IMG/VR virus record: IMGVR_UViG_2545824719_000022
Span: 1-35,359 of that record
Reading direction: 5' to 3' (one strand)
Source of the DNA: a virus
Lineage: Duplodnaviria; Heunggongvirae; Uroviricota; Caudoviricetes
Length of the DNA stretch: 35,359 bases
The translations under genes were made by a program, and so were the position numbers. Each line of letters starts with the position of its first letter. Position 1 is the stretch's first letter. The notes under the pieces were generated by a model. That model saw only the letters and a program-made list of their open reading frames with translations. It did no database searches and had not been told where the DNA came from. Below are positions 1 through 21,605 of the stretch, piece by piece.

Positions 1-1362
1 ATGTTTAAACCGGAACTCCTTTCCCCGGCGGGAACGCTGAAAAATATGCGTTACGCTTTCGCTTATGGCGCAGATGCTGTTTATGCGGGCCAGCCGCGTT
101 ATTCCCTGCGTGTGCGCAACAACGAATTCAACCACGAAAATCTTCAGCTCGGCATCAATGAAGCCCACGCGCTGGGGAAAAAGTTTTATGTCGTGGTCAA
201 CATTGCACCGCACAACGCCAAGCTGAAAACCTTTATCCGTGACCTGAAACCGGTGGTGGAAATGGGGCCGGATGCGCTGATTATGTCCGATCCAGGGCTG
301 ATTATGCTGGTGCGTGAGCACTTCCCTGAAATGCCGATCCACCTTTCGGTGCAGGCTAACGCCGTGAACTGGGCGACGGTGAAATTCTGGCAGCAAATGG
401 GCCTGACCCGCGTGATCCTCTCTCGCGAGCTGTCGCTGGAAGAGATTGAAGAGATCCGCAATCAGGTGCCGGATATGGAGATCGAGATCTTCGTTCACGG
501 CGCGCTGTGCATGGCCTACTCCGGTCGCTGCCTGCTCTCTGGCTATATCAACAAGCGCGACCCGAACCAGGGCACCTGCACCAACGCCTGCCGCTGGGAG
601 TACAACGTCCAGGAAGGGAAAGAAGATGATGTTGGCAACATCGTACACAAGTACGAGCCGATTCCGGTGCAAAATGTTGAGCCGACGCTGGGTATCGGCG
701 CACCAACCGACAAAGTGTTTATGATCGAAGAGGCCCAGCGTCCGGGCGAGTATATGACCGCGTTTGAAGATGAGCACGGCACTTACATCATGAACTCGAA
801 AGATCTGCGCGCCATCGCCCATGTAGAACGCCTGACCAAAATGGGCGTGCATTCGCTGAAAATCGAAGGTCGTACCAAATCTTTCTACTATTGTGCACGC
901 ACCGCACAGGTTTACCGCAAAGCTATCGATGACGCCGCTGCGGGAAAACCGTTCGATACCAGCCTGCTGGAAACTCTGGAAGGTCTGGCGCATCGTGGCT
1001 ATACCGAAGGTTTCCTGCGTCGTCATACTCACGACGATTATCAGAACTACGAATACGGTTATTCAGTTTCTGACCGCCAGCAGTTTGTTGGTGAGTTTAC
1101 CGGTGAGCGCAAGGGGGACCTCGCGGCGGTAGCGGTGAAAAATAAATTCTCCGTTGGCGACAGCCTTGAGCTGATGACGCCGCAAGGCAACATTAATTTT
1201 ACCCTTGAGCACATGGAAAACGCCAAAGGCGAAGCTATGCCGATAGCACCAGGCGATGGTTATACTGTGTGGCTCCCGGTCCCGCAGGATCTTGAGCTCA
1301 ATTACGCGCTGCTGATGCGTAATTTCTCCGGGGAAACCACGCGTAATCCCCACGGTAAGTGA
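1..1362 (+). CDS. yegQ: Host gene: U32-family peptidase-like protein YegQ (tRNA hydroxylation protein TrhP)
   Basis: Full-length 453-aa ORF starting at ATG base 1 with TGA at 1360-1362; translation recognised as E. coli YegQ from memory. GC-rich host-like composition. Only non-phage protein gene in the window. Confidence 0.88.
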   Translation: MFKPELLSPAGTLKNMRYAFAYGADAVYAGQPRYSLRVRNNEFNHENLQLGINEAHALGKKFYVVVNIAPHNAKLKTFIRDLKPVVEMGPDALIMSDPGLIMLVREHFPEMPIHLSVQANAVNWATVKFWQQMGLTRVILSRELSLEEIEEIRNQVPDMEIEIFVHGALCMAYSGRCLLSGYINKRDPNQGTCTNACRWEYNVQEGKEDDVGNIVHKYEPIPVQNVEPTLGIGAPTDKVFMIEEAQRPGEYMTAFEDEHGTYIMNSKDLRAIAHVERLTKMGVHSLKIEGRTKSFYYCARTAQVYRKAIDDAAAGKPFDTSLLETLEGLAHRGYTEGFLRRHTHDDYQNYEYGYSVSDRQQFVGEFTGERKGDLAAVAVKNKFSVGDSLELMTPQGNINFTLEHMENAKGEAMPIAPGDGYTVWLPVPQDLELNYALLMRNFSGETTRNPHGK

Positions 1363-1396
1363 TTAATTTCGATTATTTTTCCCGGATGGAAAATTC

Positions 1397-1439
1397 TTAG
1401 AAACCGATCACATACAGCTGTATTTATTAAGGTTATCAT
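1397..1439 (+). promoter_or_regulatory. Putative cyaR promoter: CRP-like site TTAGA-N6-TCACA (1397-1412) and -10 TATCAT (~1434-1439)
   Basis: Half-site TCACA read directly at 1408-1412 with a weaker upstream half. Spacing places the site about 42 bp upstream of the inferred cyaR 5' end, consistent with the known CRP activation of CyaR. Confidence 0.4.
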
Positions 1440-1446
1440 CCGTTTC

Positions 1447-1533
1447 GCTGAAAAACATAACCCATAAAATGCTAGCTGTACCAGGAACCACCTCCTTAGC
1501 CTGTGTAATCTCCCTTACACGGGCTTATTTTTT
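1447..1533 (+). ncRNA. cyaR: CyaR (RyeE) Hfq-dependent sRNA
   Basis: Sequence GCTGAAAAACATAACCCATAAAATGCTAGCTGTACCAGGAACCACCTCCTTAGCC... matches my recollection of CyaR, including the CCUCCUU anti-SD-like stretch. Ends in hairpin GTGTAA..TTACAC + GGGC + T-run (1501-1533). In K-12, cyaR lies between yegQ and the cryptic P2 remnant gene ogrK. Confidence 0.75.
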
Positions 1534-1595
1534 ACGTACAACAAATTGAAATAAAAGGATTTATTTCTGGTCACGTCCATATATTGACCACATCG

Positions 1596-1621
1596 ACAAA
1601 AAAGCCCCTCGACTGAGGGGC
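1596..1621 (-). terminator. Rho-independent terminator downstream of ogr (also usable from the + strand)
   Basis: GCCCCTC-GACT-GAGGGGC hairpin (1604-1621) followed on the minus strand by TTTTTTGT (1596-1603); sits just 3' of the ogr stop. Confidence 0.6.
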
Positions 1622-1634
1622 TTCCTGTTTGTAA

Positions 1635-1853
1635 TTACATCCACATAATTTGCTGCCCTGACGGCAACGGGTGCGGCCTTACGGCGTGGACTTCTCCCGG
1701 CTTCACGATGTATCGCTGTACCGACTCATAAGTGATGAACGTGGCGCTGCAATTCACGTTCTGGCACTGGTGATAACGCTCTTTTGTCGTGTCAGTGATA
1801 TAGCGACTTGTACGCGCATGTGCGGCATGCTGGCATAAAGGACAATGAAACAT
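1635..1853 (-). CDS. ogr: Late-gene transcriptional activator Ogr (C4 zinc finger)
   Basis: 72-aa product from internal ATG at 1853: MFHCPLCQHAAHARTSRYITDTTKERYHQCQNVNC... with CPLC/CQNVNC zinc-finger cysteines; matches P2 Ogr as I recall it. The longer 93-aa ORF in the track is probably an over-extension. Confidence 0.9.
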   Translation of the reverse strand: MFHCPLCQHAAHARTSRYITDTTKERYHQCQNVNCSATFITYESVQRYIVKPGEVHAVRPHPLPSGQQIMWM

Positions 1854-1934
1854 CGCGAGCACCTCTTCCGGTTTTGTTGATGGTGCCATTTTAGTTAATT
1901 TAACCTTATAAAACAAACAGATAAAATAAAAACA

Positions 1935-3098
1935 TCACTCATCATCTTCTGTTTCGTACTCCACATCAGAAAGCCTGACCTCAAGCTCCAGGGACGTCGT
2001 GAAGCCGCTATTATTCAGAAAATGTGTCACCTTAGTGATTGTCCAGTCCTGCTCGTCTATGACGCGCTTAAAGCCTGATACTTTGACCGGCGTTTCCGTG
2101 TAAATATCTGCCCGACCAGTAGCCAGACTGATGGAGAACTCCGCAACGCCCCGTTGCAGCTTATCCCACTTCGCCTGAGCGGCGCGCATGGCCTGCGCTT
2201 TCGTGGCATATACCGTGGTCAGGGCAAAAACGTTGTCAGCCTCACCGGCCATGTATTCACCTTCACGCGCTTCCGGTACTTTAGGCGCTTTCTTCTGCCT
2301 GACCGGTTTCGCTTTCGGGTGCTCCAGTGCGCGCAGGTGTTTCTCTTTCTTTTTACGTTTCAGTTTTACCTTCTGCTTTTGAGGCTTCGGGTCTTTGGTG
2401 TGTAGCCATTTTGCCGTTACACCGGTGTAGGCTCCACGGTCAGCAATCGCAAAATGATGACGGTCGCCGTCGCTGCGGGTGATGGTAATCTGCGGGATTT
2501 TTTTACCGCTGGCCGTCCCCCCCTGCCCCGCCTTAAGAAACAACAGTTTTCCCATTTTTACCGACACCTCACCGCCGTTGCGTTCAGCAAGACGGATCAG
2601 GAATTTCGCATCAGACTCCTGCGACTGGTCGATGTGCGGGATTTTAATTCCGGCCAGTGACGGAGCGACACTGGCTTCCAGCTTGTTACGGGAGGCTATC
2701 GCCTCAACAATCGCACCGAGTGTGGTGTCATGCCAGGAGCCTTCCCGGCGGGAATTAAGCGTCCCGCGGAAATCTGCACTCCGGGCGCGGATGGTAACCA
2801 CATCCGGCGCGCCCCGGTGTTCAACCTCATCAACGGTAAATTTCCCTTTGCATACCAGGGCAAAACCTTTCCAGCCGATATACACCGTCAGGACAGCGCC
2901 ACGAATCGGCAGCCCGACCTGCCCGTCGGCATCGTTCAGTTCAATATCAAGCTGGTCAGCCTCAAAGCCCCGGTTATCCGTCAGGGTCATGCTCATCAGA
3001 CGGTCGCTGATATTGCCGGTAATATCCCTGCTGTCGAGCATCAGCATGTAATCCGGCGTCAGCGTACTGCCTGCATCAAATGTCAGTGCATCCAGCAT
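1935..3098 (-). CDS. D: Tail protein gpD
   Basis: 387-aa ORF with ATG start; sequence and position (between ogr and U) match P2 gpD. Confidence 0.88.
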   Translation of the reverse strand: MLDALTFDAGSTLTPDYMLMLDSRDITGNISDRLMSMTLTDNRGFEADQLDIELNDADGQVGLPIRGAVLTVYIGWKGFALVCKGKFTVDEVEHRGAPDVVTIRARSADFRGTLNSRREGSWHDTTLGAIVEAIASRNKLEASVAPSLAGIKIPHIDQSQESDAKFLIRLAERNGGEVSVKMGKLLFLKAGQGGTASGKKIPQITITRSDGDRHHFAIADRGAYTGVTAKWLHTKDPKPQKQKVKLKRKKKEKHLRALEHPKAKPVRQKKAPKVPEAREGEYMAGEADNVFALTTVYATKAQAMRAAQAKWDKLQRGVAEFSISLATGRADIYTETPVKVSGFKRVIDEQDWTITKVTHFLNNSGFTTSLELEVRLSDVEYETEDDE

Positions 3099-3577
3099 TA
3101 TCCCGCCCCCGTCATACCCGTGAATTTAGTCGCCATACTGCCAGCCTTACCGATGAGCGATTCCGCCTGTTTACCGATATCGCCATAAAGCGCGGCCAGT
3201 GATTCATCAACGCGGGTGAGCGACAGCGTAAAATCAATTTTCCGGGGTGTGCCGTCTGCAAAGAAAATACTCCCTGTTTCACTCACCTTGCTGATGACAT
3301 ACATGCCGTAAATCATGCCGGTGCCATCCAGCAACGGCCACGCCCGCCCCTCCTCTGCCATCAGCCTGAGCGTGGTCATCGTCAGCTTGCCGCCGGTCAG
3401 TTCGGGATAAAGCACACCGGCAAGCGTGATGTTTTCCTCACCCACACCGAGAAACTGAAAAGCGTCCCGTTTACCGATACGGGAATTTGACGGCCAGCGA
3501 TAATCTGATTCACGCTGCATGGTCTGGTGTGGCAGCGTCTGGCGCATAAAAACAAACATACCTAACGCGAGCATCAT
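3098..3577 (-). CDS. U: Tail protein gpU
   Basis: 159-aa ORF with ATG start; stop overlaps the D start (TAATG); P2 gpU-like, in synteny. Confidence 0.88.
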   Translation of the reverse strand: MMLALGMFVFMRQTLPHQTMQRESDYRWPSNSRIGKRDAFQFLGVGEENITLAGVLYPELTGGKLTMTTLRLMAEEGRAWPLLDGTGMIYGMYVISKVSETGSIFFADGTPRKIDFTLSLTRVDESLAALYGDIGKQAESLIGKAGSMATKFTGMTGAG

Positions 3578-3591
3578 TTTTCGTCACCTCC

Positions 3592-6039
3592 TTAACCGTC
3601 ATGCATCATGCTGGCACGGGCGCGCGCACGTTTATCCCGCTCGTATTTTTCGAGTGCATCCTGTAACTGGCGGTCGAGCTGTATCCCCGGCGTAGTACCG
3701 CCCGTCAGGTTGATGTGATATTCGTTTTTACTCTGGTCCACATAAGAGCGGCCAGCCGGTGCCGTGACCGGCTGATAAGCCTGATAACCTGCATAAGAGC
3801 TGGCCGCCGGAATATAACCACCGGTGCCATACGTGGCGGCATGAGTTCTGGCGGCGGTCTGGTCAAGCGTGCCTGACTCTTTGTTGATGACGCCGAGTTT
3901 TTCCAGTACCCAGTCAATACCGCCGCGCAGTTTGTTGAACGCATTAAGCGGCAGCATCAGCGCGTCAGCCAGTGCCTGCCCGAACATGACGCCCGTGTCA
4001 CGGCAACGGTTCAGGGTGTCCTGGGTGGCTTTGACCGGGGCAATCAGGTTTTTAAACCACTGCCACGCGGCCTGTAACTTTTCGCCCAGCCAGTCAAACA
4101 CCGGTTTAAGTGGCGTGAACAGTTCCCCCACCGGCGCAAATGCCGCTTTCAGCCCTTCCACCACACCGCCAAAGAATGCGCTGACAGGCTCCCAGTATTT
4201 ACGGATAAGCAACGCCCCGGCGACAATGGCGGCCACCACGGCCACAACCGGCCAGCTAATCGCCCCGATGGCCGTCATAACAGCACTGCCAACCGTCGTG
4301 AAGATTGCCCCCATTGCGCCTGCTGCCGCGATGATGGCATTGATGCCGGTGATAACCGGCCAGGCTACGAGGCCAATGGCACCGATGACACCAATCAGTG
4401 CCAGTGCACCACCGACAATGATGCCGATGGTTGACGCCAGTGATTTGTTTTTCTGGATCCAGCCGTCGAGTTTTAACACATACTTTGTGGCCGTCTGCGT
4501 GAGCTTACGCAGTGCGCCTTCCTGCTGGTCAAACAGGTCTGTCCCCACCGCCTCATAAGCGGACTGAAACTCCTTAAAGTCACCGCCGAGGTTGTCCTGC
4601 ATGATTTTAACCAGCTCTGCGGTCTTTCCGTCTGAGGCTTTAAACGCAGCGGTCAGTTTGTCCAGCTTTCCGGTTGAGGCGGCAGTCATCAGCACGGCGG
4701 CGGCTGAGCTGGCCTCCTCCCCGAAAATGGTTTTCATATATTCAGCCTGCTGGGCAGTACCGAGCCGGTTTTTCTCAAAACTGGCCTGCATTTCTTTCAG
4801 AATGGTAAATACTGGTCGGGTGTTTCCCTTACTGTCTGAGGTTTTCACTCCAAGCTCTTTGAGTGCATCCCATGCTTTTCCCGTCGGTGCCTGCAGGCGG
4901 CTTAACACGGCACGGCTTCCCGTCCCCGCCATTGAACCGGTAATTTTTGCATCATGCAGCGCCCCGACCATTGCGGCGGTTTCTTCAATGCTGACACCGG
5001 CATTTTTTGCCACAGGTGCGGCATAGGTCAGCGCATCGCTCATGCCGTCAAAATCGGCGGCGGTTTTGTTCATCGTCATGGAGAGAACATCCCCGATATG
5101 AGCGACCTTATCGTTTGAAAGCTGAAAGGCGGATTTCATCCCCATCAGCAGGGCGGCGTTTTCTTCCATCGTGCGGCGGTTCGCCAGCGCCATGTTCAGC
5201 GTGACCGGCGTTGCCGCCTGAATGGCATCAACATCCCCACCGGCTTTCGCAATAATAATCTGCGCACCGGCTGCATCATCTGCCGAGGCGGCGGTATTGT
5301 CGCCGAGCTGGCGCGCCTGTTTGCGTAATGCGGCCATTTCGGCGGAGTCTTTTGCCACACCGAGCACGGCCTGCAATTCTGAGTTTTTCTGCGCAAACTC
5401 ATAACCGGGCATCAGCAGCTTAACACCGACCATCGTTCCCGCAGCAGCAATCCCCACACCGGCAGCGCCCACTGAGGCCATATTTCCGGCCAGTTCTTTT
5501 CCGGCCTGATAACGCTGTTTGACTGCGTTAAGTTTTGCCTGTTGTGCACTGACACGCGCCAGTGCGTCGCGCTGACGGTTAAGCTGTGCGGTGGTTTCAC
5601 TGATACGGTTTTTCAGCCCCTGCTCATCATGTGCAAGATTGCGGGTATTAATTCCCACAGCGGCCAGTTCCCGCTGCTGGCGTTTAACGGAATCCGTCAG
5701 GCGGTTATATTTCGCCTGTAAGTCCTCCGCCGCTCGCTTTGCTGATTCCAGCACTTTCGCCTGAGCACGTGTCGGACGTTCGGTGTTTTTAAACTGTGTG
5801 GCAAGGGCTTCGGCCTCCTGCCGTGCCTTTTCAAGTGCATGACCAGTCACGGCGAGCTGTGCGCTGGTCTTGCGGAATCCCTCAATACGGGATGCGTGAC
5901 CGTTCAGCTCGCGCAGTGATTTTTGTGTTTCCCGGATATCCCCCGACAGCGACTTACTCGCTGTGCGGATGGATTTAAACGGGCGGGACGCCTGGTCAAC
6001 AGCCCTGAGCAATACCTGTAATTTTACATTGTTACTCAT
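3592..6039 (-). CDS. T: Tail tape measure protein gpT
   Basis: 815-aa ORF with ATG start; coiled-coil-rich N-terminus, hydrophobic central segment, Gly/Ala-rich stretches typical of tape measure proteins; position between E/E' and U. Confidence 0.9.
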   Translation of the reverse strand: MSNNVKLQVLLRAVDQASRPFKSIRTASKSLSGDIRETQKSLRELNGHASRIEGFRKTSAQLAVTGHALEKARQEAEALATQFKNTERPTRAQAKVLESAKRAAEDLQAKYNRLTDSVKRQQRELAAVGINTRNLAHDEQGLKNRISETTAQLNRQRDALARVSAQQAKLNAVKQRYQAGKELAGNMASVGAAGVGIAAAGTMVGVKLLMPGYEFAQKNSELQAVLGVAKDSAEMAALRKQARQLGDNTAASADDAAGAQIIIAKAGGDVDAIQAATPVTLNMALANRRTMEENAALLMGMKSAFQLSNDKVAHIGDVLSMTMNKTAADFDGMSDALTYAAPVAKNAGVSIEETAAMVGALHDAKITGSMAGTGSRAVLSRLQAPTGKAWDALKELGVKTSDSKGNTRPVFTILKEMQASFEKNRLGTAQQAEYMKTIFGEEASSAAAVLMTAASTGKLDKLTAAFKASDGKTAELVKIMQDNLGGDFKEFQSAYEAVGTDLFDQQEGALRKLTQTATKYVLKLDGWIQKNKSLASTIGIIVGGALALIGVIGAIGLVAWPVITGINAIIAAAGAMGAIFTTVGSAVMTAIGAISWPVVAVVAAIVAGALLIRKYWEPVSAFFGGVVEGLKAAFAPVGELFTPLKPVFDWLGEKLQAAWQWFKNLIAPVKATQDTLNRCRDTGVMFGQALADALMLPLNAFNKLRGGIDWVLEKLGVINKESGTLDQTAARTHAATYGTGGYIPAASSYAGYQAYQPVTAPAGRSYVDQSKNEYHINLTGGTTPGIQLDRQLQDALEKYERDKRARARASMMHDG

Positions 6040-6459
6040 TCGTGTTTCCGCTTCGCCGGAGCGCCTTTTCGCGCCATGTGATGAGTTCGGTCAGGCTCAT
6101 GGGATACAGTTCTGATGGCGGCCAGTGAAATATCACTGCCACATCCGCCATCAGGTCATCGACCGAGAGATTTTTCGGAAACGTCACTGCACCGAGTTCG
6201 GCGACAAAAAACCGACCACCTTACCGGCCAGCGCCACAAGGTCAGGCAGTTCCAGTGCGGCGACTTCCTGCTCGGTCAGCATCGGTGCAGTCATGCGCGG
6301 CAGCACCTTAATCAGTGCATCGACTTCGGAGTTTGCGACCGCTGCCAGACTGACACCGCGCAGCGTCCCGGCACTGGGTTTCATCAGCGTGACCTGTTCG
6401 ATAACCTGCTCACCACGTTTGACCGGATTTTCCAGGGTAATGACATTTTCTTTGTCCAT
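6032..6459 (-). CDS. E+E': Tail assembly chaperone fusion gpE+E' (142 aa) made by programmed -1 ribosomal frameshift
   Basis: I translated the -1 frame by hand from the slippery heptamer T-TTT-TTG (minus strand, 6205-6211): ...GFF/VAELGAVTFPKNLSVDDLMADVAVIFHWPPSELYPMSLTELITWREKALRRSGNTNE, with TAA at 6032-6034 overlapping the T start. Total 142 aa, the size I recall for P2 E+E'. Confidence 0.75.
6184..6459 (-). CDS. E: Tail protein gpE (in-frame product, 91 aa)
   Basis: 91-aa ORF with ATG start ending ...GFLSPNSVQ; the slippery site lies 7 codons before the stop. Confidence 0.85.
   Translation of the reverse strand: MDKENVITLENPVKRGEQVIEQVTLMKPSAGTLRGVSLAAVANSEVDALIKVLPRMTAPMLTEQEVAALELPDLVALAGKVVGFLSPNSVQ
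6205..6211 (-). other. Slippery heptamer TTTTTTG for the E/E' -1 frameshift
   Basis: CAAAAAA on the + strand at 6205-6211, i.e. TTTTTTG in the E reading direction, positioned so that a -1 slip opens the 57-codon E' extension. Confidence 0.7.
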
Positions 6460-6515
6460 GGTTTTCTCACTTCTGAATCGGGGTTAACCGGTCAGCCTGG
6501 CTGACCGGATGAAAA

Positions 6516-7034
6516 TCACAGGCCGATATTGCGGCGGTGTTGCTCCAGCCGGTCGACGCCGTTCACCTTCTCAATCATGTTGATGGTGTCGATTTCGACC
6601 AGCTCCTTACCGTCCATCGTCAGCCGGAAATAGGTGCAGACCACGGAGATTTTCGACTCGGTGTCTTCTCCCTGTTTCCCCTCGCCGGTGTCGATTTCTT
6701 TCTGACGTCCACGCATGACCACCTCGACGGCCACCGTTTCGCCGGTATCGTCACGCTGGTAAGAGCCTGCAAAACGAATCGGGACGGCATCCACGCCGGT
6801 TGCGGCGTAAAGCTCCCAGATAACCGAATCCGGGAAGCCACCGAGCGACCACTCCATTGACAGCGCATCGTCATCAAGGCCGAGGTCTACCGGTGCGCTG
6901 CCGTTCATCCCCGCACCGCGATAGTTTTCAAGCTTACGGGTCAGTTTTGGCAGCGTGACGGACTTTGCAACGCCCTGATAGCTGTAGCCGTTCAGAAAGA
7001 CGTTCATTAACTTGAGTTTGCGCGGCATTGCCAT
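6516..7034 (-). CDS. FII: Tail tube protein gpFII
   Basis: 172-aa ORF with ATG start; P2 FII-like sequence; immediately downstream of FI. Confidence 0.9.
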   Translation of the reverse strand: MAMPRKLKLMNVFLNGYSYQGVAKSVTLPKLTRKLENYRGAGMNGSAPVDLGLDDDALSMEWSLGGFPDSVIWELYAATGVDAVPIRFAGSYQRDDTGETVAVEVVMRGRQKEIDTGEGKQGEDTESKISVVCTYFRLTMDGKELVEIDTINMIEKVNGVDRLEQHRRNIGL

Positions 7035-7046
7035 CGGTCAGGCTCC

Positions 7047-8237
7047 TTAATTGCTGTTAACCGAAGTGACCAGATTTGCCAGGTATTTATCGGTAATACG
7101 CTGGCGCAGGGTCAGGTTTTCAAGAGGAGGCACCGGTGTATAGTCGTAGTCGATATACAGTTTTCCGGCCTTGAGGGTTTCCGCATCGTTGGATTCTTCG
7201 CTGAACCAGCAGGTCGCATCCACGATATAGCCGTTTGTTTTCAGCTCACGGAATTTGGCATTGATGCCGTCAACGATGTCGCGAATCAGCGTTGCGGTGA
7301 TGGGCTTGTCCACCGCCCACATGTGCGCCTCAGCCATCGTGTCGGCCAGCACCTGCGCGGTGCGGGTATAGTTTTCAAAGAGGAACAGCGGGTCATCAGA
7401 GCAGGTACGGTTACCCCAGAAGCGGAAACCGTCGCGGCGAATCAGCGTAGTGACGCCTGACTCGTTAAGCAGGTCAGCATCGGTGCCGAACTCCTGCAAA
7501 TCCCAGAATACAGATGCGCTGATGCCGGTAACACCATTTACCCCGACGTTGGACAACGTTTTATGCCAGCCCTGCTCCTGGTCGATTTTAGCACGCAGCC
7601 CCAGCGCACGGGCGGTGGCATACGCGGTGGCGGTGGTGCTGCTGACCGTATCCCATGCGAGGAAATCCGGCCAGATGACCATCAGCTCACGCTGGCTGAA
7701 ATTCTGGCGGTAGGCTTTCACCTCGGAAATGGTTTTACAGCCCCATGCGCTGATATACCCGAAAGCGCGCAGCTTCTGACAGACTGATGCCAGTGCAACA
7801 GCCACCTCTTTGGTGTCCAGTCCCGGCACGCCGAGAATACGCGGTTTAACACCGGTTACTGACTCCGCCGCCAGCAGGGCTTTCAGTCCGGTGTACTGAC
7901 CGTTTTCGTCGGTGGTGCCGATGATATTGGAAACGGTCTGCGCAAGTTTCGTTTCTTCGTCGTCGCCGGTGCCGTCTTCCACGCGCACGACAACGGTGAC
8001 CGGTTTTGACTGGTCAGCGATGGCCTGCAACGATGCCGCCAGCGTGCCTTTTTTACCGGCCTTTGCAATTGCGCTCTGCACATTGGTAATCAGCACAGGT
8101 TTATTGAGGGGGAAGGTTTCCGCATCCGCATCGCTGGCCGTGCAGACCATGCCGACAATGGCAGTGGATACAGTGGAAATGACGCGGGTGCCGTCGTTAA
8201 TCTCCAGCACCTGCACGCCGTGATGATAGTCACTCAT
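7047..8237 (-). CDS. FI: Contractile tail sheath protein gpFI
   Basis: 396-aa ORF with ATG start; P2 FI-like; first gene of the FI-FII-E-T-U-D block. Confidence 0.9.
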   Translation of the reverse strand: MSDYHHGVQVLEINDGTRVISTVSTAIVGMVCTASDADAETFPLNKPVLITNVQSAIAKAGKKGTLAASLQAIADQSKPVTVVVRVEDGTGDDEETKLAQTVSNIIGTTDENGQYTGLKALLAAESVTGVKPRILGVPGLDTKEVAVALASVCQKLRAFGYISAWGCKTISEVKAYRQNFSQRELMVIWPDFLAWDTVSSTTATAYATARALGLRAKIDQEQGWHKTLSNVGVNGVTGISASVFWDLQEFGTDADLLNESGVTTLIRRDGFRFWGNRTCSDDPLFLFENYTRTAQVLADTMAEAHMWAVDKPITATLIRDIVDGINAKFRELKTNGYIVDATCWFSEESNDAETLKAGKLYIDYDYTPVPPLENLTLRQRITDKYLANLVTSVNSN

Positions 8238-8723
8238 CCGTTTAACTCCGTGGTTAATGGGTGCAACTATTTTCTGTTGGGCAGTGCATGAGACGCTATT
8301 TGACCTGGCTGGTCAGTGGATGAAACAACAGATAAAGAAAATGCGGGCAATTCCCCCCGCCAGTCCTGATTTGCACTCACTCATTCTCCAACTGGCTACT
8401 TACATAGCCCAAACGCTATCAAATCTGACAGTCTGCTTTGAGCGATCTGCGGACATTACTAACAGCATTCTGTATGAATAACGGGGGGTAGATCATTCCT
8501 GTCCTCACGACGACGCCTATCTATCATACAGTCGTTCTTTGGATCAAGACGCGTTCTGAAATGGTGTTTTTATGTATGTGCTGAATTCTGGGGCATAGAG
8601 TAAACCTTTCAAATTGCCAGAAACAGAAATGTGCGATTTAGTTGTCAAGTAATACCGGATAATTCAGCGATTCATCAAGAAATCATCGACCAGGCTGCTG
8701 TACATTCTCATCGGACGATTTTA

Positions 8724-9590
8724 CTATTCCTCAAGATCGCAGTTACTGCAATGACCTTCCATCCGGAATGCACCACATTCACAAGGCTCCATAGGAACAA
8801 AACCATCCATCTTGCTGTATTCACATTTATACCAGAGACAGACACCGACCCTTTGTTCCGGTAAATAAATTACGGATGGGACACTACATTCAGGACATTC
8901 CTGAAAATCCCAAGTTTGCAGATTATTCAGGCTGAAACCACAACAGATACAGTGAGTCCGTGCCGGAAAGCTTTCACTTTGGTAAAGGATAAAATGTGAA
9001 AAACTCTCACAAACGGGACAAAGTGCAAGGGTGTATTCCTGGTTAACAGTTATATCAAGGAATTGTTGCTCAAGAGCGATGATGTCTTGACGTAAATCAG
9101 AGTTCCATGAATTTTCGGTCTCATCTGACTGAATTATGACGAATGCGGGACGAAAAATTTGTTGGTACAGTTCACTCAGTTGCATTGCCAGTTCTTGCGG
9201 ACGAACCTCAAGGGCAAAATGCTGAAGGTTATTACGCAACTGACCCACCGTTTTCATCATTTGTAATGCAGATTCAGAAAATTCGGCTGGGTAATATGTC
9301 TTTAACAGCTTACAAAGCTGGTTGACGTTGACAGATTTACACTGGTGTAATTCTGACTCGGTTGGATGCGCCGGATCCACACATTTTTCTTGAAGCGATG
9401 CTGGATTAAAAATCGCTCCAGACCCATTGCGCGAAACTACGGCCTTCAACAATAGCTCAGCGGCCTGAAAGAGGTTAAGCAGGCACTGTTTGTAGTCACG
9501 TCGATCATGCCCTTCTAGCGCTTTGTTAAAGTAGTCCAGCCCGGTTTCCACTGAATCCAACGCATTTTCTAGTAAGTTAAAACGGACCAT
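8724..9590 (-). CDS. Cargo protein: HEPN-like N-terminal domain (Rx4H motif RNNLQH) plus C-terminal cysteine-rich multi-zinc-ribbon region; candidate defence/abortive-infection effector
   Basis: 288-aa ORF with ATG start in an AT-rich insert. N-terminal 130 aa are helical-looking, with R119-x4-H124. C-terminal 100 aa carry CPVC, HCICC, CPEC, CLWYKC, CEC and CSNC motifs. No P2 backbone counterpart. Confidence 0.55.
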   Translation of the reverse strand: MVRFNLLENALDSVETGLDYFNKALEGHDRRDYKQCLLNLFQAAELLLKAVVSRNGSGAIFNPASLQEKCVDPAHPTESELHQCKSVNVNQLCKLLKTYYPAEFSESALQMMKTVGQLRNNLQHFALEVRPQELAMQLSELYQQIFRPAFVIIQSDETENSWNSDLRQDIIALEQQFLDITVNQEYTLALCPVCESFSHFILYQSESFPARTHCICCGFSLNNLQTWDFQECPECSVPSVIYLPEQRVGVCLWYKCEYSKMDGFVPMEPCECGAFRMEGHCSNCDLEE

Positions 9591-9753
9591 ATTAAAGCCC
9601 CCCGAATAGGCATCGTCGTTATGCCAGCGCTTCCGCCAGTTACACAGATAGTGATTGTACCCACGAATATTGGGAACCTATTTTAGCATGTTTAACTTTA
9701 GTAGTACTGACACAACATTCATGGAGCGGACTGATTGACTTTTGGGGCGTGTA

Positions 9754-9782
9754 TTTACAAACTCACTACAATGCTGTATAAT
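9754..9782 (+). promoter_or_regulatory. Near-consensus sigma70 promoter TTTACA-N17-TATAAT reading + (opposite to flanking genes)
   Basis: TTTACA at 9754-9759, a 17-bp spacer, then perfect TATAAT at 9777-9782; lies about 140 bp upstream of the small ORF at 9921. Confidence 0.5.
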
Positions 9783-9920
9783 TCGTGAAGAGTGAATTTA
9801 GCTAGTGCATCCATAGGTTCGATTCCTATGCCTACAATTCTCATCACAGCTCTCCCAATAGTCGCATTTATCCGTTACCTCAACGTGTTACTTAACGATT
9901 ACGTCAGTAAGGAGAAGCCT

Positions 9921-10097
9921 ATGAGTAAATTATTCCGCCATGTAGTACTACTATATGTATCTTGTTTCATTGAAACTTTTTGGGCTGGGGTGATAAGTGT
10001 AGTAGCGGGTCTGATGACGGGCGGTGTCCAAATTATTTTGGCACTAGCTAAATCTTCTCAATTTTTGTTTTTTTATTCAAAGCACTTACCCCCATAA
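9921..10097 (+). CDS. Small hydrophobic protein (58 aa), probable membrane peptide
   Basis: ATG preceded by a strong SD AAGGAG with 6-nt spacing. Product MSKLFRHVVLLYVSCFIETFWAGVISVVAGLMTGGVQIILALAKSSQFLFFYSKHLPP is largely hydrophobic (1-2 predicted TM helices). The track's longer 101-aa version starts at GTG 9792, right at the predicted transcription start. Confidence 0.45.
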   Translation: MSKLFRHVVLLYVSCFIETFWAGVISVVAGLMTGGVQIILALAKSSQFLFFYSKHLPP

Positions 10098-10374
10098 ATA
10101 TTATTTAAATCAATAAACTAAGTCACTCTACGCATATTTTCCTTATCATGGTCTTTCGTGTTTTTTGTACTCAACATGATCGTTTCTCCTTTCTTTAATA
10201 CACAGTATGATTAGCTACGCCTTCTGTTGGAGCGAAGTGGACGAGTTAATTGAGCTGAATGTCAGCTATGAGCGAGGAACGGACTTCAAGAAAGTACCTA
10301 ACTGCGTATCGATTGCAAAATATGACAGTCTAACGGTGTTAAGGGCCATGAGTGCAGCCCTTAAGAAAAAAGTA

Positions 10375-11310
10375 TTAATAATATTTCCTGGCTTGCGCGC
10401 TCGTTTCGGTTAAGTTTATTTCATGGTAGTGATTATTTATAAAGTCACAAAAAGTACTAATTTTATCTTTGAGATTACTCATGCTATGCGTGATTTCGTC
10501 GTATAAATCGCTTTCCTCCTGATTTCGACAGTGGTCACCGGGATTTATAAAACTAAAAGTATCATTTGGTGCTGAATAATTATATGGAGCTTTTCTAAAC
10601 AAGATAATTAGATCACGCCAGGCCGTTGCAAAATCAATTGTAACATTCTTTAAAGCTGTATCATTCAGTTGAAAAACAGGTGAGTTTAAAATGTTCAAAA
10701 TATTATCGTATTCTTCAATAATTAATGAATGAATGTATTTTGCGCCCCACTGCAAATGTTCTATTGTTGAATGAAAATCAATAACATTCAACAATGTCGA
10801 CAAATTTGAGATATCTCTCTTGCGCAAAAATTCTTCCCTCGTCGGTTGGTGTCGTTCGAACATTTGCGGGTAGTACATTTTGAGTACAGCTGGGTCTTTG
10901 CTTAAATCAAAGCTAATATCCTCCCAGAAAACCACATCGACAGGAAACAGGCCTTTTAATTGTCTGGCATCATTGAGTGTTCTTACATAGCGCTGAATGC
11001 TAACATCCCTGGGCGCTGTCGTAGCGATGTAAAGAACCGTAATTTTTGGGCGAAATTTTTCAGCCTTGAGTAATTCATCATCGATTGTCGCCGTACTGAT
11101 TCCTGATACTGTATTTTTACACTGAATTCCAACGAAACGCCCAAGAGAGTAATCACCATATACATCAACTCCATCCTGCCGCTGCCCTGACCGTCCATGT
11201 CTGTTCAGATTAGGATTGGACCATCGCAGTTGGAATGAACTTTTGCACATATCCTCAAATTCGTCCCAAGATTTAGGGGGGGGTAACAACATTGAATTAT
11301 ATGTAACCAC
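10375..11310 (-). CDS. Cargo protein: Mrr-like PD-(D/E)xK restriction-endonuclease-fold N-terminal domain plus uncharacterised C-terminal domain; candidate defence nuclease
   Basis: 311-aa ORF with GTG start 7 nt after SD AAGGA (alternative ATG at 11292). N-terminus shows W..FE..C....F, then DGVDVYG, then GIQCK, then hydrophobic beta-strand-like segments (ITVLYIATT, VDVVFWEDIS): the typical Mrr catalytic-domain layout. AT-rich. Confidence 0.6.
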   Translation of the reverse strand: MVTYNSMLLPPPKSWDEFEDMCKSSFQLRWSNPNLNRHGRSGQRQDGVDVYGDYSLGRFVGIQCKNTVSGISTATIDDELLKAEKFRPKITVLYIATTAPRDVSIQRYVRTLNDARQLKGLFPVDVVFWEDISFDLSKDPAVLKMYYPQMFERHQPTREEFLRKRDISNLSTLLNVIDFHSTIEHLQWGAKYIHSLIIEEYDNILNILNSPVFQLNDTALKNVTIDFATAWRDLIILFRKAPYNYSAPNDTFSFINPGDHCRNQEESDLYDEITHSMSNLKDKISTFCDFINNHYHEINLTETSAQARKYY

Positions 11311-11785
11311 TTACTAATCCTTTATCTAAGATTCTTCATTTTTGTAATCACTATCATAATCATGCTTGATGTGCAATATCTTATTTGCCATGGTTATATG
11401 ACGTGAACATAATATATGCTGTAAGTATAAGCAGAATTTATTAATGGTGTTCGCCACTCAACGTAATGGTTTCACACTCTAAGGCTCTTTTTTAATAAAT
11501 CAAAACATTATGGACAGTGAATCATATCGGAAATGGTTCCTTTTAAATTGAATAACGGCCATAGTACACAGGTGTATGTGTTAATCGATTTTTCAGACGT
11601 TTTTTTCGCCTAACATGAGATTTCGTTCGATTAAGCACCAGACCCAATTACCACTATTTAATGAGTACAATTGCTTTACTTTAGGTCGAGTAGTAGTAAC
11701 GTCCGCTCTTGGCACAGAGCGGACTGTCAGATTAGGCTTTACTCTGTGCCATAGATATGTAATCTCACACCAGAGCTTATACAAC

Positions 11786-12313
11786 TTATTGCGGCATTTC
11801 CGGCCATTCAGGATTTGCAGGATCCACACGGCTGACCAGAACACTGTAGCGTTCCCATGCTTCCAGTCGGCTACGCTCCTCATCTGTTGCCATGTTCAGC
11901 CTGACAGCGCGCTCCAGTGGCAAAATCACGGATTCAGCATCTGCAAGAAGTCTGGCTTTCCGGTTTTCTGCCTGCTGCTGCAATTCCTCTGCCGTATAAA
12001 TGCGTTTAATCACTTTGCCGTCCTTAAACATCCAGTTCCCTGAAATGTCCGCCCGTCGGTTAGCAGTAATATCCGCCACTTCAACCACACTTAATCCATC
12101 TGGTCTGATAGCTGTCACATCCTTTTCCACATAGCGGATAATATTATCTTTGTCGTACGCTATTTTTATCGTGTCATCAGCAAAATACTTTTGTTCTTCG
12201 TACCAGTTCTTACCATCTTCTGAAAAAAACCAGACAACATCAAAGTCCTTTGTCAATTGATATTGTTCAACCGTTTTTGGATTACCCACCGTTATATTTA
12301 TCAAATGCTGCAT
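11786..12313 (-). CDS. G: Tail fibre assembly protein gpG
   Basis: 175-aa ORF with ATG start directly downstream of H; P2 G/Tfa-like sequence. Confidence 0.85.
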
Positions 12314-12316
12314 AAA

Positions 12317-14899
12317 TTATACCTGCGCCACGTTATACCATGTCCCGTTAATGTATTTCTGCACCGGTCTGTAATATATGCCACCAATGTTATCGGCAGA
12401 GTTTGAGCCGGTATCCTGAACAATAATGCCGGAATATACACACCCGGACGGTGCCTGATGTGTCCATGTCATGCCATTGTTCGCAGGTTTGTATGTGGCA
12501 GCACCACCAAGCCGGATATCCCGGACATAGCGTGAATCAAAGTTGCCATAGTTAGATGGTGATACCTGCCCGTTAACAGCAAAAGTGATGCTGTTATCTG
12601 TATTTCTCTGACTGTAAAAATGCCAGCCTGCATCATCACCTAATTCAGCCACCACCGGACGACTTGAGTTTCCCCACAAATTGAATGCGGCTTCCTTCGT
12701 GGATGTATTACTGCTGCTGACCGTGAATTTTTTCCCGCTACCGGCACGTACTTTGGTACTTGAGACAATATCACCAGTAACATTCAGGCCATGCCCCATT
12801 GATACAGCACCCGTGGCATCATTTATAATCAGCGGTCTTAAATTATTATAACTGCCTAATCTGTCACCTGATTTAGTCAACATAAAATAAGTGCTGCTGC
12901 CATCATTCCTGATAAAGAAACCATAATTGCCATAAGCAATGCGCAGACCATTAGCACTGAGTGATGTAATCTCACCTCTTGAACGGAGACCATAAGCGGA
13001 GCTGAGTGATAATTCTTCCTGAGCATCAGTATTACCAGTCGCCCAGCGAACTACCCCGCCCTGTACTGTTTCATGCCAGATAGTGTCTCCTTCTCCACCA
13101 CGAAACTTTCTGAGATATTTTTTGCCGCCTCTGGTGCCTGAACATAAGGCCGTAGACATATAGGCATTCTGGCTTCCGCCATCCTGATTAATCGTTCCGG
13201 TCATTGCGTCGCCCTGACGATTCCAGTCACGACGCCAGCCGGGGGAGTAGCCGTCCCCATGATTTATGTAAGTGAATTGCGCGCTGGTTGTACCGCCACC
13301 ACTTGATGTTGTCGGCGTGGTCACTCGAATAGTGATTGCAGATTTAGTTCCCATGACCTCGACGACACAACCAGCCAGGTGGATATCACCACATCCGGTA
13401 TCCGTAATGATTTTGTTATTTGCATATGACCAGGAGCCTTTGCACATCCAGTACGGATGATTAAATGCACCACGGGAATCCAGCCATTCAATAAACTGAG
13501 CGGTTGTCCAGTTTCCGGCTTCAGTGCTCAAAGCGCCGCTATAAGCACGACAGGCACCGATATTTTTCGTGAAGGTATCCTTTCCCGGAATATCCGCACC
13601 GTTCTGATCTTTCTGAAGACGTTTTTCAGCATTGTCATAGGCAGACTTCACCGCTTTTGATGTTGCAGCCAGCGTTTCAGAATCGCTGTTGGTGGCGCTA
13701 CTGAGCTGGACAAGACCTTTCCGCGCCGTGGTGGCGTCCTGTGCAGTGTATTTCCCGTTAGCAAGGTCATACGCTGTCTTAACCGCCTTTGGCGTTGCCG
13801 CAAGCGTTTCAGAATCGCTGTTGGTGGCGCTACTGAGCTGGACAAGACCTTTTCGCGCTGTGGTGGCATCCTGTGCAGTGTATTTCCCGTTAGCAAGGTC
13901 ATACGCTGTCTTAACCGCCTTTGGCGTTGCCGCAAGCGTTTCAGAATCGCTGTTGGTGGCGCTACTGAGCTGGACAAGACCTTTTCGCGCTGTGGTGGCA
14001 TCCTGTGCAGTGTATTTCCCGTTAGCAAGGTCATACGCTGTCTTAACCGCCTTTGGCGTTGCCGCAAGCGTTTCAGAATCGCTGTTGGTGACGCTACTGA
14101 GCTGGACAAGACCTTTTCGCGCGGTGGTGGCATCCTGTGCGGTATATTTCCCGTTAGCAAGGTCATATGCTGCCTTTACCGCTTTTGGTGTTGCGGCGAG
14201 CGTTTCAGACGTGCTGTTGGTGGCACTACTGAGCTGGACAAGGCCTTTTCGCGCTATGGTGGCGTCCTGTGCGGTATATTTCCCGTTAGCAAGGTCATAC
14301 GCGGCCTTTACCGCTTTCGGCGTTGCGGCCAGTGTTTCAGACGTGCTGTTGGTCGCACTGCTTAACTGAGTAAAACCTTTTGCGGTCAGCGAGGCGTCAG
14401 GGTGACGTCGTGACTGTTCATGTTCTGCAATTTTGTCATCAACGTAATCCTGCGTTGCCATCACCGTTGTGGTGTCAATGGTCAGCTCCACTGAGGCCAC
14501 ACTGCTGACGATGATGACCATGCGGCAGGTCTGCGAACGCCCTGAGCCTTCGGCAAGGGCTGGCTTATAACTTTCGGCCATGTTCGCCACGGCAATTAGC
14601 GTTCCCGCATCATCGTACAGGCCAAGTTCACGCATCCAGAAACCGCCCACCTCCGGCGGAATAACCAGCTCTGCGATAATATAATTACTGTTTCGTTTGT
14701 CCTGGCTGATTTTGTTCAGCGCATGTCGCCAGACTTCGTGGATAAGCCCGGTCTGTCCGGCATCCGGGACAGGCAATTTACCCCCGCCATCCCCGACGGC
14801 CATCGTGGTAATATTGACCTTCCGCCCTCCCGGTGCGGTTGCCGCTGCCAGCTTTGCTGCACCGGCAGTGGTGATAACGGTTCTGAATTTTGTGCTCAT
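12317..14899 (-). CDS. H: Tail fibre protein gpH (receptor-binding), with internal tandem repeats
   Basis: 860-aa ORF with ATG start; conserved P2 H-like N-terminus (MSTKFRTVITTAGAAKLAAATAPGG...), about 5.5 copies of a 44-aa repeat, and a distal receptor-binding-type region. Confidence 0.9.
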   Translation of the reverse strand: MSTKFRTVITTAGAAKLAAATAPGGRKVNITTMAVGDGGGKLPVPDAGQTGLIHEVWRHALNKISQDKRNSNYIIAELVIPPEVGGFWMRELGLYDDAGTLIAVANMAESYKPALAEGSGRSQTCRMVIIVSSVASVELTIDTTTVMATQDYVDDKIAEHEQSRRHPDASLTAKGFTQLSSATNSTSETLAATPKAVKAAYDLANGKYTAQDATIARKGLVQLSSATNSTSETLAATPKAVKAAYDLANGKYTAQDATTARKGLVQLSSVTNSDSETLAATPKAVKTAYDLANGKYTAQDATTARKGLVQLSSATNSDSETLAATPKAVKTAYDLANGKYTAQDATTARKGLVQLSSATNSDSETLAATPKAVKTAYDLANGKYTAQDATTARKGLVQLSSATNSDSETLAATSKAVKSAYDNAEKRLQKDQNGADIPGKDTFTKNIGACRAYSGALSTEAGNWTTAQFIEWLDSRGAFNHPYWMCKGSWSYANNKIITDTGCGDIHLAGCVVEVMGTKSAITIRVTTPTTSSGGGTTSAQFTYINHGDGYSPGWRRDWNRQGDAMTGTINQDGGSQNAYMSTALCSGTRGGKKYLRKFRGGEGDTIWHETVQGGVVRWATGNTDAQEELSLSSAYGLRSRGEITSLSANGLRIAYGNYGFFIRNDGSSTYFMLTKSGDRLGSYNNLRPLIINDATGAVSMGHGLNVTGDIVSSTKVRAGSGKKFTVSSSNTSTKEAAFNLWGNSSRPVVAELGDDAGWHFYSQRNTDNSITFAVNGQVSPSNYGNFDSRYVRDIRLGGAATYKPANNGMTWTHQAPSGCVYSGIIVQDTGSNSADNIGGIYYRPVQKYINGTWYNVAQV
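13620..14390. repeat. About 5.5 near-identical tandem copies of a 132-bp unit inside H (phage tail fibre repeat)
   Basis: Period measured directly: the GCGTTTCAG motif recurs at 13672, 13804 and 13936 (132 bp apart). Protein unit is GLVQLSSATNS(D/T)SETLAATPKAVK(A/T)AYDLANGKYTAQDATTARK. Boundaries approximate. Confidence 0.85.
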
Positions 14900-14909
14900 T
14901 ATTCCTCAC

Positions 14910-15440
14910 TTATCCGGGGTAAACCGTAATTACATCGCCGTCGTAAGCCACACCACCGGCGAACAGGTAGCCGGGAATGTCCCGGGTAATGTTCAGGCCA
15001 ATAAGGTGGCGGCTTGCAGGTTTGGCATCAGCAATCAGCCGTTCCATTTCCTGATACATTGCCTCTGTGATGCCACTTTCCAGTACACCAATATCAAGCC
15101 GGAAGGTGCCGGGCGGGTCACTGTTTTCCCACCACTCCGTCACGTTGATGAGATAGCCGAGCGGCTCCACCACACGCCGGATTGCACCTATAGTGCCTTT
15201 ATGACAGTGGATGAAATACGCATCGCGGATAACGGCGCGTTTTGTCGCTTCCGGCCACTTCTCATCCCACCTGTCGACCGAAAACGCCCACGCCAGCCAC
15301 GGCAGCAAATTTGCCGGACAGGTATCCGGGTTCCACAGCTCACGAATACTGACCGGCGTTTTTTCAATTTCCGCACAGGCTTTTGCGGCGGCGACCTCAA
15401 GCGGTGATGAGCCGGTCGGCAGCAGTCGCGAATCACTCAT
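14910..15440 (-). CDS. I: Baseplate assembly protein gpI
   Basis: 176-aa ORF with ATG start; P2 I-like; overlaps J by 8 nt. Confidence 0.85.
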   Translation of the reverse strand: MSDSRLLPTGSSPLEVAAAKACAEIEKTPVSIRELWNPDTCPANLLPWLAWAFSVDRWDEKWPEATKRAVIRDAYFIHCHKGTIGAIRRVVEPLGYLINVTEWWENSDPPGTFRLDIGVLESGITEAMYQEMERLIADAKPASRHLIGLNITRDIPGYLFAGGVAYDGDVITVYPG

Positions 15441-16341
15441 CCGAGCCTCCGGTCACGACGCGGTATTCGGTACAGAAAGACGCCTGCGTACTGTTGAGCA
15501 CGATGTCGGCCAGTGGTGCAGCCAGTTCGACACGCTGCACGCCTTCCACATGCAAAGCGGCATAAATGGCAGACAGACGGATGTCGCGCCCCAGCCGGTG
15601 CTGTGCCGTGATGTATGCTTCCAGTTTTTTCACGGCGGCAGCGCGGATGGGTTCGCTTTCGGGACCAGGGTAAAGGTAAAGCGTGGCGTTTATCTGGTAT
15701 TCAACGATGGCGGCAGACTGCACGGTCACGCGGTCGGCCACCGGCCTGACGTCCTCGCCATTAAGGGCGTTACGCACCGCCGCCAGCAGATCTTCGGATG
15801 CCACACCGTTATTTTCACGTGACAGCACGGAGATGGTGACGCAGGCCGGAGACGGACTGGTTACAGAGATATCCGCGACACGCCCGTCGGCACTGCGACC
15901 ATGATACTGATAGGCTCCCACCGACCCGGCGACGCTTAAGCCCTCAAACGCCTGCTGAATACGCAGACGATAATCGGTGTCAGATTCCATCACTGCCGGT
16001 GTCGGCGGAATGGTCGAATCATCTGCCGGGGTGATAGTCAGGCGCGTGGTGTTGTAATTGGCACCAATCACATCAAGGTCATTACCGGCGGCACAGGCCA
16101 GCATCACCGCCCGTGCGGCCTCATTCACACGCTGACGCCAGATAAGCTCACGATAAGCATTTTCCTCCAGCAGTTTGGCGAGAGGCTCAGATTCCAGCGT
16201 CAGGGTACGGGCGACCGCCTCCTGCTGGTCTTCCGGGTAAAGGGAAATCAGTGTCGCCTTGCGTTCGGCAAGAATGGTTTCAAAGTCCAGCTCCTCGACC
16301 ACATCCGGTGCAGGTAGCTGGTTCAGGTCGATAATCGGCAT
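15433..16341 (-). CDS. J: Baseplate protein gpJ
   Basis: 302-aa ORF with ATG start; P2 J-like; synteny W-J-I. Confidence 0.88.
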   Translation of the reverse strand: MPIIDLNQLPAPDVVEELDFETILAERKATLISLYPEDQQEAVARTLTLESEPLAKLLEENAYRELIWRQRVNEAARAVMLACAAGNDLDVIGANYNTTRLTITPADDSTIPPTPAVMESDTDYRLRIQQAFEGLSVAGSVGAYQYHGRSADGRVADISVTSPSPACVTISVLSRENNGVASEDLLAAVRNALNGEDVRPVADRVTVQSAAIVEYQINATLYLYPGPESEPIRAAAVKKLEAYITAQHRLGRDIRLSAIYAALHVEGVQRVELAAPLADIVLNSTQASFCTEYRVVTGGSDE

Positions 16342-16345
16342 GGTT

Positions 16346-16693
16346 TCAACTCACAGGGATGGTTAACGAAAGTGGCTGGCCGGTGTCGTTGTGCTGGCCG
16401 GTTAACGTAACTGTCATTCGCCCGTCAAAACTGCGCTCAGTGGTGACGGATGACAGGGTGACGCGGGGTTCCCATTTCAGCACCGCCATGTAACAGGCGA
16501 CCTTAATCTGCAACTCAAGCGCCGGGGTCTGCGGCTGGTCAATCATTGACGCCAGCAACGAGCCGTAATCACGACGCATCACCCGTGAGCCGACCGGTGT
16601 GCGCAGGATATCGCCGATACTCTGGCTGATATGCTCAAGGTCAGTGACCGTCAGGCCATCACTGCGATTCATTCCGAGATAACGCGCTGTCAT
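16346..16693 (-). CDS. W: Baseplate wedge protein gpW
   Basis: 115-aa ORF with ATG start; P2 W-like; overlaps the V stop. Confidence 0.88.
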   Translation of the reverse strand: MTARYLGMNRSDGLTVTDLEHISQSIGDILRTPVGSRVMRRDYGSLLASMIDQPQTPALELQIKVACYMAVLKWEPRVTLSSVTTERSFDGRMTVTLTGQHNDTGQPLSLTIPVS

Positions 16694-19762: not shown

Positions 19763-20043
19763 TACGGTTTCCCCCTGCCCTTAAAGCGGCGCTGAATGGC
19801 AATCTCAATCACCTGATAACCGGCGATACCCAGCATGGAGCCGATACCGCACACCGCAGGCAGTGACAGGTCAGGAAACTGCACCAGAACAACACCGGCA
19901 ACCATCGAGACAAAACCACCGAGCAACATGCGCCCGATAAACAGACGCGGGGTGATGGGTTCACCACCGGCAAGCACCTTGCCGACAACAATCAGCACCC
20001 CAATCATGAAAAGCGACAGGACGCTTTTTTCTTCTGCTGTCAT
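19762..20043 (-). CDS. Y: Holin gpY
   Basis: 93-aa ORF with ATG start; hydrophobic helices and charged C-terminus (RRFKGRGKP); P2 Y-like. Confidence 0.85.
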   Translation of the reverse strand: MTAEEKSVLSLFMIGVLIVVGKVLAGGEPITPRLFIGRMLLGGFVSMVAGVVLVQFPDLSLPAVCGIGSMLGIAGYQVIEIAIQRRFKGRGKP

Positions 20044-20046
20044 GCG

Positions 20047-21602: not shown

Positions 21603-21605
21603 CGG

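Follow-up and report, generated by a model that had tools for sequence, protein, structure and literature searches.

Where does the bacterial chromosome give way to phage DNA beside the small RNA gene cyaR, and do the two ends of the element that begins there belong to one prophage? We addressed this in a stretch of 35,359 nucleotides (positions 1 to 35,359 of IMG/VR record IMGVR_UViG_2545824719_000022, hereafter the window), for which an earlier note had placed the attachment junction, attR, in the approximately 100 bp between cyaR and the phage gene ogr, with an apparently complete P2-like prophage to its right.

The attachment core at the yegQ-cyaR locus

The left end of the window carries the following features, of which the IHF site and the two Int repeats are predicted sites.

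1-1362, plus strand: yegQ/trhP, a chromosomal 453-aa ORF upstream of cyaR, so named in all matching genomes
1447-1533, plus strand: cyaR (ryeE), intact sRNA gene (Rfam match, exact match of the 87-nt cyaR sequence, fold with terminator hairpin)
1498-1525, plus strand: cyaR intrinsic terminator hairpin, 11 bp stem and 6-nt loop, then TTATTTTTT (terminator scan and RNA fold)
1507-1533, strand not applicable: 27-bp P2-type att core AATCTCCCTTACACGGGCTTATTTTTT, equal to the annotated attP core of AF063097
1534-1600, minus strand: P arm of attR, phage DNA; AF063097 has protein_bind features for IHF and for Int ("P arm") at collinear positions
1539-1551, within the P arm: predicted IHF-like site (motif scan), collinear with the P2 IHF footprint
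1574-1581, minus strand: predicted Int arm-type repeat TATGGACG (motif scan)
1585-1592, within the P arm: predicted Int arm-type repeat TGTGGTCA (motif scan)
1602-1623, minus strand: ogr / F operon terminator hairpin, phage DNA (annotated rho-independent terminator in P2; hairpin scan)
1635-1853, minus strand: ogr, late-gene activator of 72 aa (ORF collinear with P2 ogr; Pfam Ogr_Delta on the source contig)
1935-3098, minus strand: gpD tail protein, the first structural gene (ORF)

The covariance model for CyaR (Rfam RF00112) matched 1445-1530 over its full length (model positions 1-85 of 85) with 100.7 bits against a gathering score of 47 (E 3.4e-19), and the 87-nt cyaR sequence matches 1447-1533 exactly. 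Together with the terminator hairpin, the Rfam match bears out the earlier statement that an intact cyaR ends at about 1533. The end of ogr at 1635, on the minus strand, was also correctly given, as was the remark that E. coli K-12 holds at this locus a cryptic P2 remnant only (just ogrK and a D' pseudogene). The flanking chromosome varies a little between strains, in that a parDE toxin-antitoxin pair lies between yegP and yegQ in the source strain, strain 120899 and UC4316 (16142-16736 in record L018 and 605-1199 in the UC4316 record L004) and is absent from K-12 (L005).

The attachment site was located by side-by-side alignment of the window with the empty locus of UC4316 (L004), the K-12 remnant (L005), P2 attP (AF063097, L003) and both ends of the prophage in strain 120899 (L001). 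The sole stretch common to attB, attP and both junctions of the 120899 prophage is AATCTCCCTTACACGGGCTTATTTTTT, present once in the empty site, once in P2 attP and as two perfect copies around the 120899 prophage. The window is the same as the empty yegQ-cyaR-yegR site through the end of this 27-mer and the same as P2 attP from its first base rightwards, while the 120899 prophage shows the reciprocal arrangement at its other end (P2 int-side flank, the same 27-mer, yegR-side flank). BLAST gave the same limits, with the similarity to E. coli chromosomes extending to 1533/1534 and that to P2 beginning at 1507, so the exchange region lies inside cyaR and 1534-1634 is purely phage DNA. An exact match to the P2 core, such as that at 1507-1533, is expected nowhere by chance. 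As read from these alignments, the crossover region is 1507-1533, inside cyaR and not in 1534-1634, and the junction is a real chromosome/phage boundary, on the ogr side, of a P2-family prophage at yegQ-cyaR.

The core is the last 27 nt of cyaR and the 3' half of its terminator: it begins 2 nt before the loop, at the top of the ascending stem, and runs through the loop and the descending stem to the end of the U-tract. The earlier placement in the spacer between cyaR and ogr was thus misplaced by one core length, although its suggestion that the junction might overlap the cyaR terminator was sound. The comparison with an unoccupied locus that had been proposed cuts both ways, as it confirms that the junction is real but puts the core in cyaR and finds 1534-1634 missing from the empty site. 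By the usual P2 convention the junction that carries the P arm is attR, and with the P arm as annotated in AF063097 that label was right.

In the mechanism that we propose, a P2-type tyrosine integrase with IHF would exchange strands within the 27-bp core shared by attP and the 3' end of cyaR, and 1507-1633 would be the attR (P arm - core - B') that results on the ogr side of a P2-family prophage. As the core brought in by the phage would rebuild the terminator hairpin and U-tract, cyaR would be left intact and unchanged by integration. The preservation of cyaR can be read directly from the window, and the recombination chemistry would be that of the P2 system.

The DNA to the right of the core (1534-1634) holds the IHF site, the two Int arm repeats and the ogr terminator. 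Both arm repeats fit the Int arm consensus tgTGGaCa (PMC3448106), and the arm as a whole (1534-1600) is of P2 type and not of WPhi type, differing from P2 by three substitutions, at 1542, 1580 and 1582. The substitutions at 1580 and 1582 fall in one Int arm repeat, changing TGTGGACG of P2 to TATGGACG (minus strand); they distinguish the window from both P2 and the K-12 remnant and are also found in the ETEC yegQ-locus prophage of strain 120899. Perfect identity of the window to the 120899 locus ends at 2246, within gpD.

Continuity of yegQ, cyaR, the arm, ogr and D is found in 1,125 of 5,426 complete E. coli genomes (approximately 21%, K-12 included). In the literature, ryeE is described as an already-known phage target in E. 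coli by Bobay et al., citing Wassarman 2001 (PMC3603311), and the E. coli W genome paper gives "cyaR RNA" as the site occupied by a P2-like prophage in W, by ogr-D' in K-12 and by P2*B in B (PMC3032704). The junction as such is not new because these papers had already published cyaR/ryeE as a P2 site, and as a P2 attachment target it is already known.

The integrase end and the source contig

If the element were a single P2-like prophage, its integrase should match its core. At the right end of the window, however, the following module is found.

33552-33824, minus strand: cox, WPhi-type, 90 aa (Pfam Phage_Cox, 79.6 bits; the module resembles WPhi)
33973-34266, plus strand: C immunity repressor, WPhi-type, 97 aa (HTH_3; position as for WPhi C)
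34379-35359, plus strand: tyrosine integrase, WPhi-type, 326 aa (Pfam Int_N and Phage_integrase; the window ends at its stop codon)

The integrase has 97% amino acid identity to WPhi Int against 51% to P2 Int, and in 10 of the 10 contexts retrieved this exact protein adjoins cpxP (cpxP-cpxRA). The cognate P2-type Int, a protein of 337 aa encoded beside attL and yegR, is absent from the window element, and homology to the prophage type of strain 120899 (L001 type) ends at 33550. Judged on sequence, the integrase of the window is not the cognate of the core at 1507-1533.

Since the window stops at the int stop codon, attL could not lie inside it, and no further match to the 27-bp core was found in it with up to 3 mismatches allowed. 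The continuation was obtained from the source. Among about 15 billion proteins the gpA allele of the window occurs on a single contig, APZZ01000113.1 (GCA_000357485.2, E. coli p0305293.14), to which the exact gpD and gpT alleles are likewise unique. Strain p0305293.14 is one of a series of ETEC isolates from Bangladesh that were draft-sequenced at GSCID (PMC4309559). In the two stretches compared, 1-16039 and 19542-35359, the contig is 100.000% identical to the window, and its order is mdtC-baeSR-yegP-parDE-yegQ-cyaR-[prophage]-cpxP-cpxRA-yiiM-kdgT-sodA-rhaT.

Directly past the window the contig carries two WPhi-type P' arm repeats (AGTGTCCACA x2), then a 47-bp WPhi core (window-equivalent 35475-35521, just outside the window) and then cpxP. 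Neither a second P2 core nor a copy of 1507-1634 was found in the 6.4 kb past the window on this contig, and the element has a single core of each type, P2 and WPhi, neither of them duplicated. The attL that had been predicted just past the window, with a core duplicating part of 1534-1634, is replaced by a WPhi-type attL at cpxP. The absence of a duplicated core and a chimeric make-up of the element had been named in the earlier note as observations that would count against its reading, and both are what the source contig presents. Its "apparently complete P2-like prophage" holds for the gene content, which is complete from ogr to int and collinear with P2, but not for the two ends, which are mismatched.

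The authors of the E. coli W genome list cpxP-fieF as a further site, distinct from cyaR, at which a P2-like prophage is inserted (PMC3032704). In complete genomes the normal order of the WPhi-type prophage is fieF-core-arm-ogr...int-arm-core-cpxP. Two complete genomes with a WPhi-type int at unusual coordinates, CE2050 (L031) and KOr024 (L030), were spot-checked for a far end at yegQ, and both have the normal fieF...cpxP arrangement. In CE2050 the 47-bp core lies over the cpxP terminator hairpin and is exactly duplicated at both prophage ends (9992-10038 and 41104-41150), and the layout of KOr024 is as in CE2050. The int-side junction of the source contig has the same form as this normal cpxP-side attL. 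The WPhi and P2 cores have no similarity to each other, even with 25% mismatches allowed. The WPhi-type core covers the terminator hairpin of cpxP (CCCCCACATCATGTGGGGG) as the P2 core covers that of cyaR, and both integrase types would therefore use an intrinsic-terminator hairpin as their core.

We infer from the core-specificity of these integrases (PMC3448106) that the element as written could not excise by site-specific recombination, since its ends are non-cognate (a 27-bp P2 core and a 47-bp WPhi core) and its integrase is non-cognate also.

A single change of parentage inside gene A

The position at which the element changes from one prophage type to the other was mapped by a three-way comparison of the window with the yegQ-locus type (L001) and the cpxP-locus type (L009/L006), which gave 183 variable columns, and by bin profiles.

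29980-30097, inside gene A: parentage switch from the L001 type to the cpxP-locus type (L009/L006)

From position 1 to approximately 30 kb the window tracks the yegQ-locus ETEC prophages, which are also the best matches of its left end (99.2%). It equals L001 up to 29,980 and L009/L006 from 30,097 on, with one column matching none of the three comparators, and over 31,750-35,359 there is no difference between the window and L006. Within the switch interval itself there are no differences between the comparator types. These columns point to a single switch of parentage, inside gene A, and on this comparison the 34-kb element is not one coherent prophage, the part from approximately 30.0 kb (with cox, C and int among its genes) being derived from a WPhi-type prophage whose own site is the interval between cpxP and fieF.

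A cargo gene for a 738-aa AAA_13 ATPase (27076-29292, plus strand) sits in a variable hotspot that has the portal gene on one side and gene A on the other. The ATPase matches the PADLOC candidate defence family PDC-S06 with 843 bits and has a weak PrrC-like match at its C-terminus. This exact allele is widespread, being found in 183 index blocks. In every other context retrieved that reaches far enough, the ATPase gene is followed by a 337-aa integrase of P2 length and then by yegR-yegS.

A search of 5,426 complete E. coli genomes for the arrangement of the window found none with a high-identity match across 28000-35359.

Two other routes to a mixed element were considered and rejected. A crossover in the short ogr-D' segment between a K-12-like remnant and a cpxP prophage does not fit a window that is closest to full-length yegQ-locus prophages up to approximately 30 kb and carries their ATPase. 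Nor does a tandem double lysogen formed by a single crossover with an infecting WPhi-type genome, as int is followed by a true attL and cpxP and not by attP and ogr.

Assembly chimera or chromosomal inversion

The best explanation, to which we give a probability of about 0.75, is that a genuine P2 attR at cyaR has been joined to the far end of another prophage in an assembly chimera of two co-resident P2-like prophages. In normal genomes the prophages at the two loci lie in opposite orientations, yegQ(+)-ogr...int-yegR at the one and cpxP(+)-int...ogr-fieF at the other. The contig would enter a P2-like prophage at cyaR and leave through a second, approximately 98% identical and oppositely oriented one at cpxP-fieF, the assembler having switched within the stretch of gene A where the two prophage copies are identical. 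We infer that both prophages are co-resident in p0305293.14. An assembly chimera and a real inversion between the two prophages both predict exactly this contig, and the choice between them must come from elsewhere.

Several observations lead us to think it quite likely that the switch was made by the assembler rather than in the cell. APZZ01000113.1 is a contig of a draft (a GSCID assembly), and other drafts break inside these prophages. The authors of the E. coli W genome met over-collapse of two P2-like prophages, co-resident at cyaR and cpxP-fieF, which was the hardest part of their assembly (PMC3032704). The arrangement is found in none of the 5,426 complete genomes (0/5,426), nor in the two that were spot-checked. 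Were the inversion real, the segment turned round would be 2.167-4.106 Mb and would contain oriC. Finally, the hybrid gpA allele is known from one contig only, although at least one sibling isolate has been sequenced.

The breaks in other drafts are seen in contigs L027, L028 and L029, each with an end within a prophage of this type, either at the portal gene or shortly after gene A; a second P2-like prophage in the genome, acting as a repeat, could account for them. On the other side, an assembler would not usually be expected to carry a 192-kb contig straight through a 34-kb prophage that has a second copy, approximately 98% identical, in the genome, and this counts against a chimera. The alleles unique to the contig (gpD, gpT and gpA) fit a chimera and also fit a strain-specific phage.

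The strongest competitor, which we regard as unlikely, is a real inversion in this ETEC clinical isolate. A RecA-dependent crossover in gene A between the inverted cyaR (P2-type) and cpxP-fieF (WPhi-type) prophages would have turned round a segment of approximately 1.94 Mb and left two hybrid prophages with mismatched att ends, each locked in. The contig is the exact predicted product, with yegQ forward followed by cpxP-cpxRA-sodA-rhaT reversed; it is long and without Ns, the switch is clean and single and lies where L001 and L009/L006 are without differences, and the two loci do hold oppositely oriented prophages in normal genomes. However, the interval 2.167-4.106 Mb contains oriC (the mnmG-mioC gap, 3.926 Mb) and is very asymmetric about it. 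The dif site lies near 1.59 Mb, and simple arithmetic then gives replichores of roughly 0.76 and 3.88 Mb after such an inversion. The absence of the arrangement from complete genomes, and the single draft contig from which the hybrid gpA allele comes, speak against the inversion just as they favour the assembler.

That the element is one coherent, complete P2-like prophage at cyaR, with a core in 1534-1634 duplicated at attL just past the window, is highly improbable. The collinear gene content from ogr to int would suit it, and related strains do carry coherent prophages at this locus, but 1534-1634 is collinear with the P2 attP arm and missing from the empty site, the integrase is of WPhi type, and what follows the window is a WPhi-type attL at cpxP without a copy of 1507-1634. 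Least probable of all is that a WPhi-type phage used cyaR as a secondary site through its own integrase, for even though P2-type and WPhi-type integrases have a common arm-repeat consensus (PMC3448106) and both cores are terminator hairpins, the DNA to the right of the core (1534-1600) is of P2 type, the core is a perfect P2 core to which the WPhi core is dissimilar even at 25% mismatches, and the other end lies at cpxP and not at yegR.

Other cargo and consequences

Two further cargo ORFs, both on the minus strand, lie between the tail-fibre assembly gene and the sheath gene.

8724-9590, minus strand: cargo ORF, 288 aa
10375-11310, minus strand: cargo ORF, 311 aa

Neither protein had a match in a Pfam search, and the 288-aa protein has an N-terminal match to PADLOC PDC-S64 (73 bits). 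At 13634-14368 the tail-fibre gene has internal repeats offset by approximately 132 bp, which show as self-matches of 90-93% identity in BLAST against the related locus.

Annotations with the prophage boundary at 1534, or with the att site between cyaR and ogr, miss the true position by 27 bp. The element, which is probably an assembly chimera, joins two attachment systems and two chromosomal loci and should be neither handled as excisable nor taken as a reference for P2-like genomes. Prophage calls in draft genomes could be tested cheaply for consistency by checking the integrase type against the type of the att core. Should the contig be correct after all, the strain would carry an oriC-containing inversion of approximately 1.9 Mb with grossly unbalanced replichores, and two hybrid prophages, each with a P2 core at one end and a WPhi core at the other and for that reason permanently locked in.

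Comparison with known systems

The closest parallel to the left junction is phage P2 itself at cyaR (ryeE), its preferred site and presumably locI of E. coli C. The 27-bp core is identical and lies in the same place, between yegQ-cyaR and yegR, the P arm with its IHF site, two Int arm repeats and ogr terminator is 97-98% identical, and in both cyaR would be regenerated by the phage copy of the core. The window differs in the three substitutions of its arm, two of them in one Int arm repeat, and in being without the cognate P2 integrase and attL. The ogrK-D' remnant of K-12 has the same locus, core and attR arm (97.4% identity over 1200-2000), but it extends only to the equivalent of about position 2141 of the window and is without a second core, whereas the window has a full phage gene set. 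A different kind of defect is seen in the prophage of strain 120899 (NZ_CP025916.1, L001 7012-9985), where the P2-type integrase is split by an IS100 insertion and the prophage is probably locked in by it.

The right end resembles WPhi (Peduovirus Wphi) in its Int (97% identical), in the same cox-C-int layout, and in the 47-bp core in the cpxP terminator with the P' arm repeats directly past the window on the source contig. The cox-C-int DNA of the window is nevertheless only approximately 85% identical to that of WPhi itself, and the normal partner junction, fieF-core-WPhi P arm-ogr, is here replaced by the cyaR/P2 junction.

More broadly, the cyaR junction is like those of integrases that target tRNA and tmRNA genes, for example phage 186 at tRNA-Ile and Fels-2 at ssrA, in that insertion occurs in the 3' end of a structured RNA gene and the attP core supplies a replacement 3' end. 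This replacement logic, by which the target gene survives, has been discussed previously (PMC3448106, PMC3603311). Where the present junction departs from those systems is in its target, the terminator of an Hfq-dependent sRNA, and in the shortness of its core at 27 bp.
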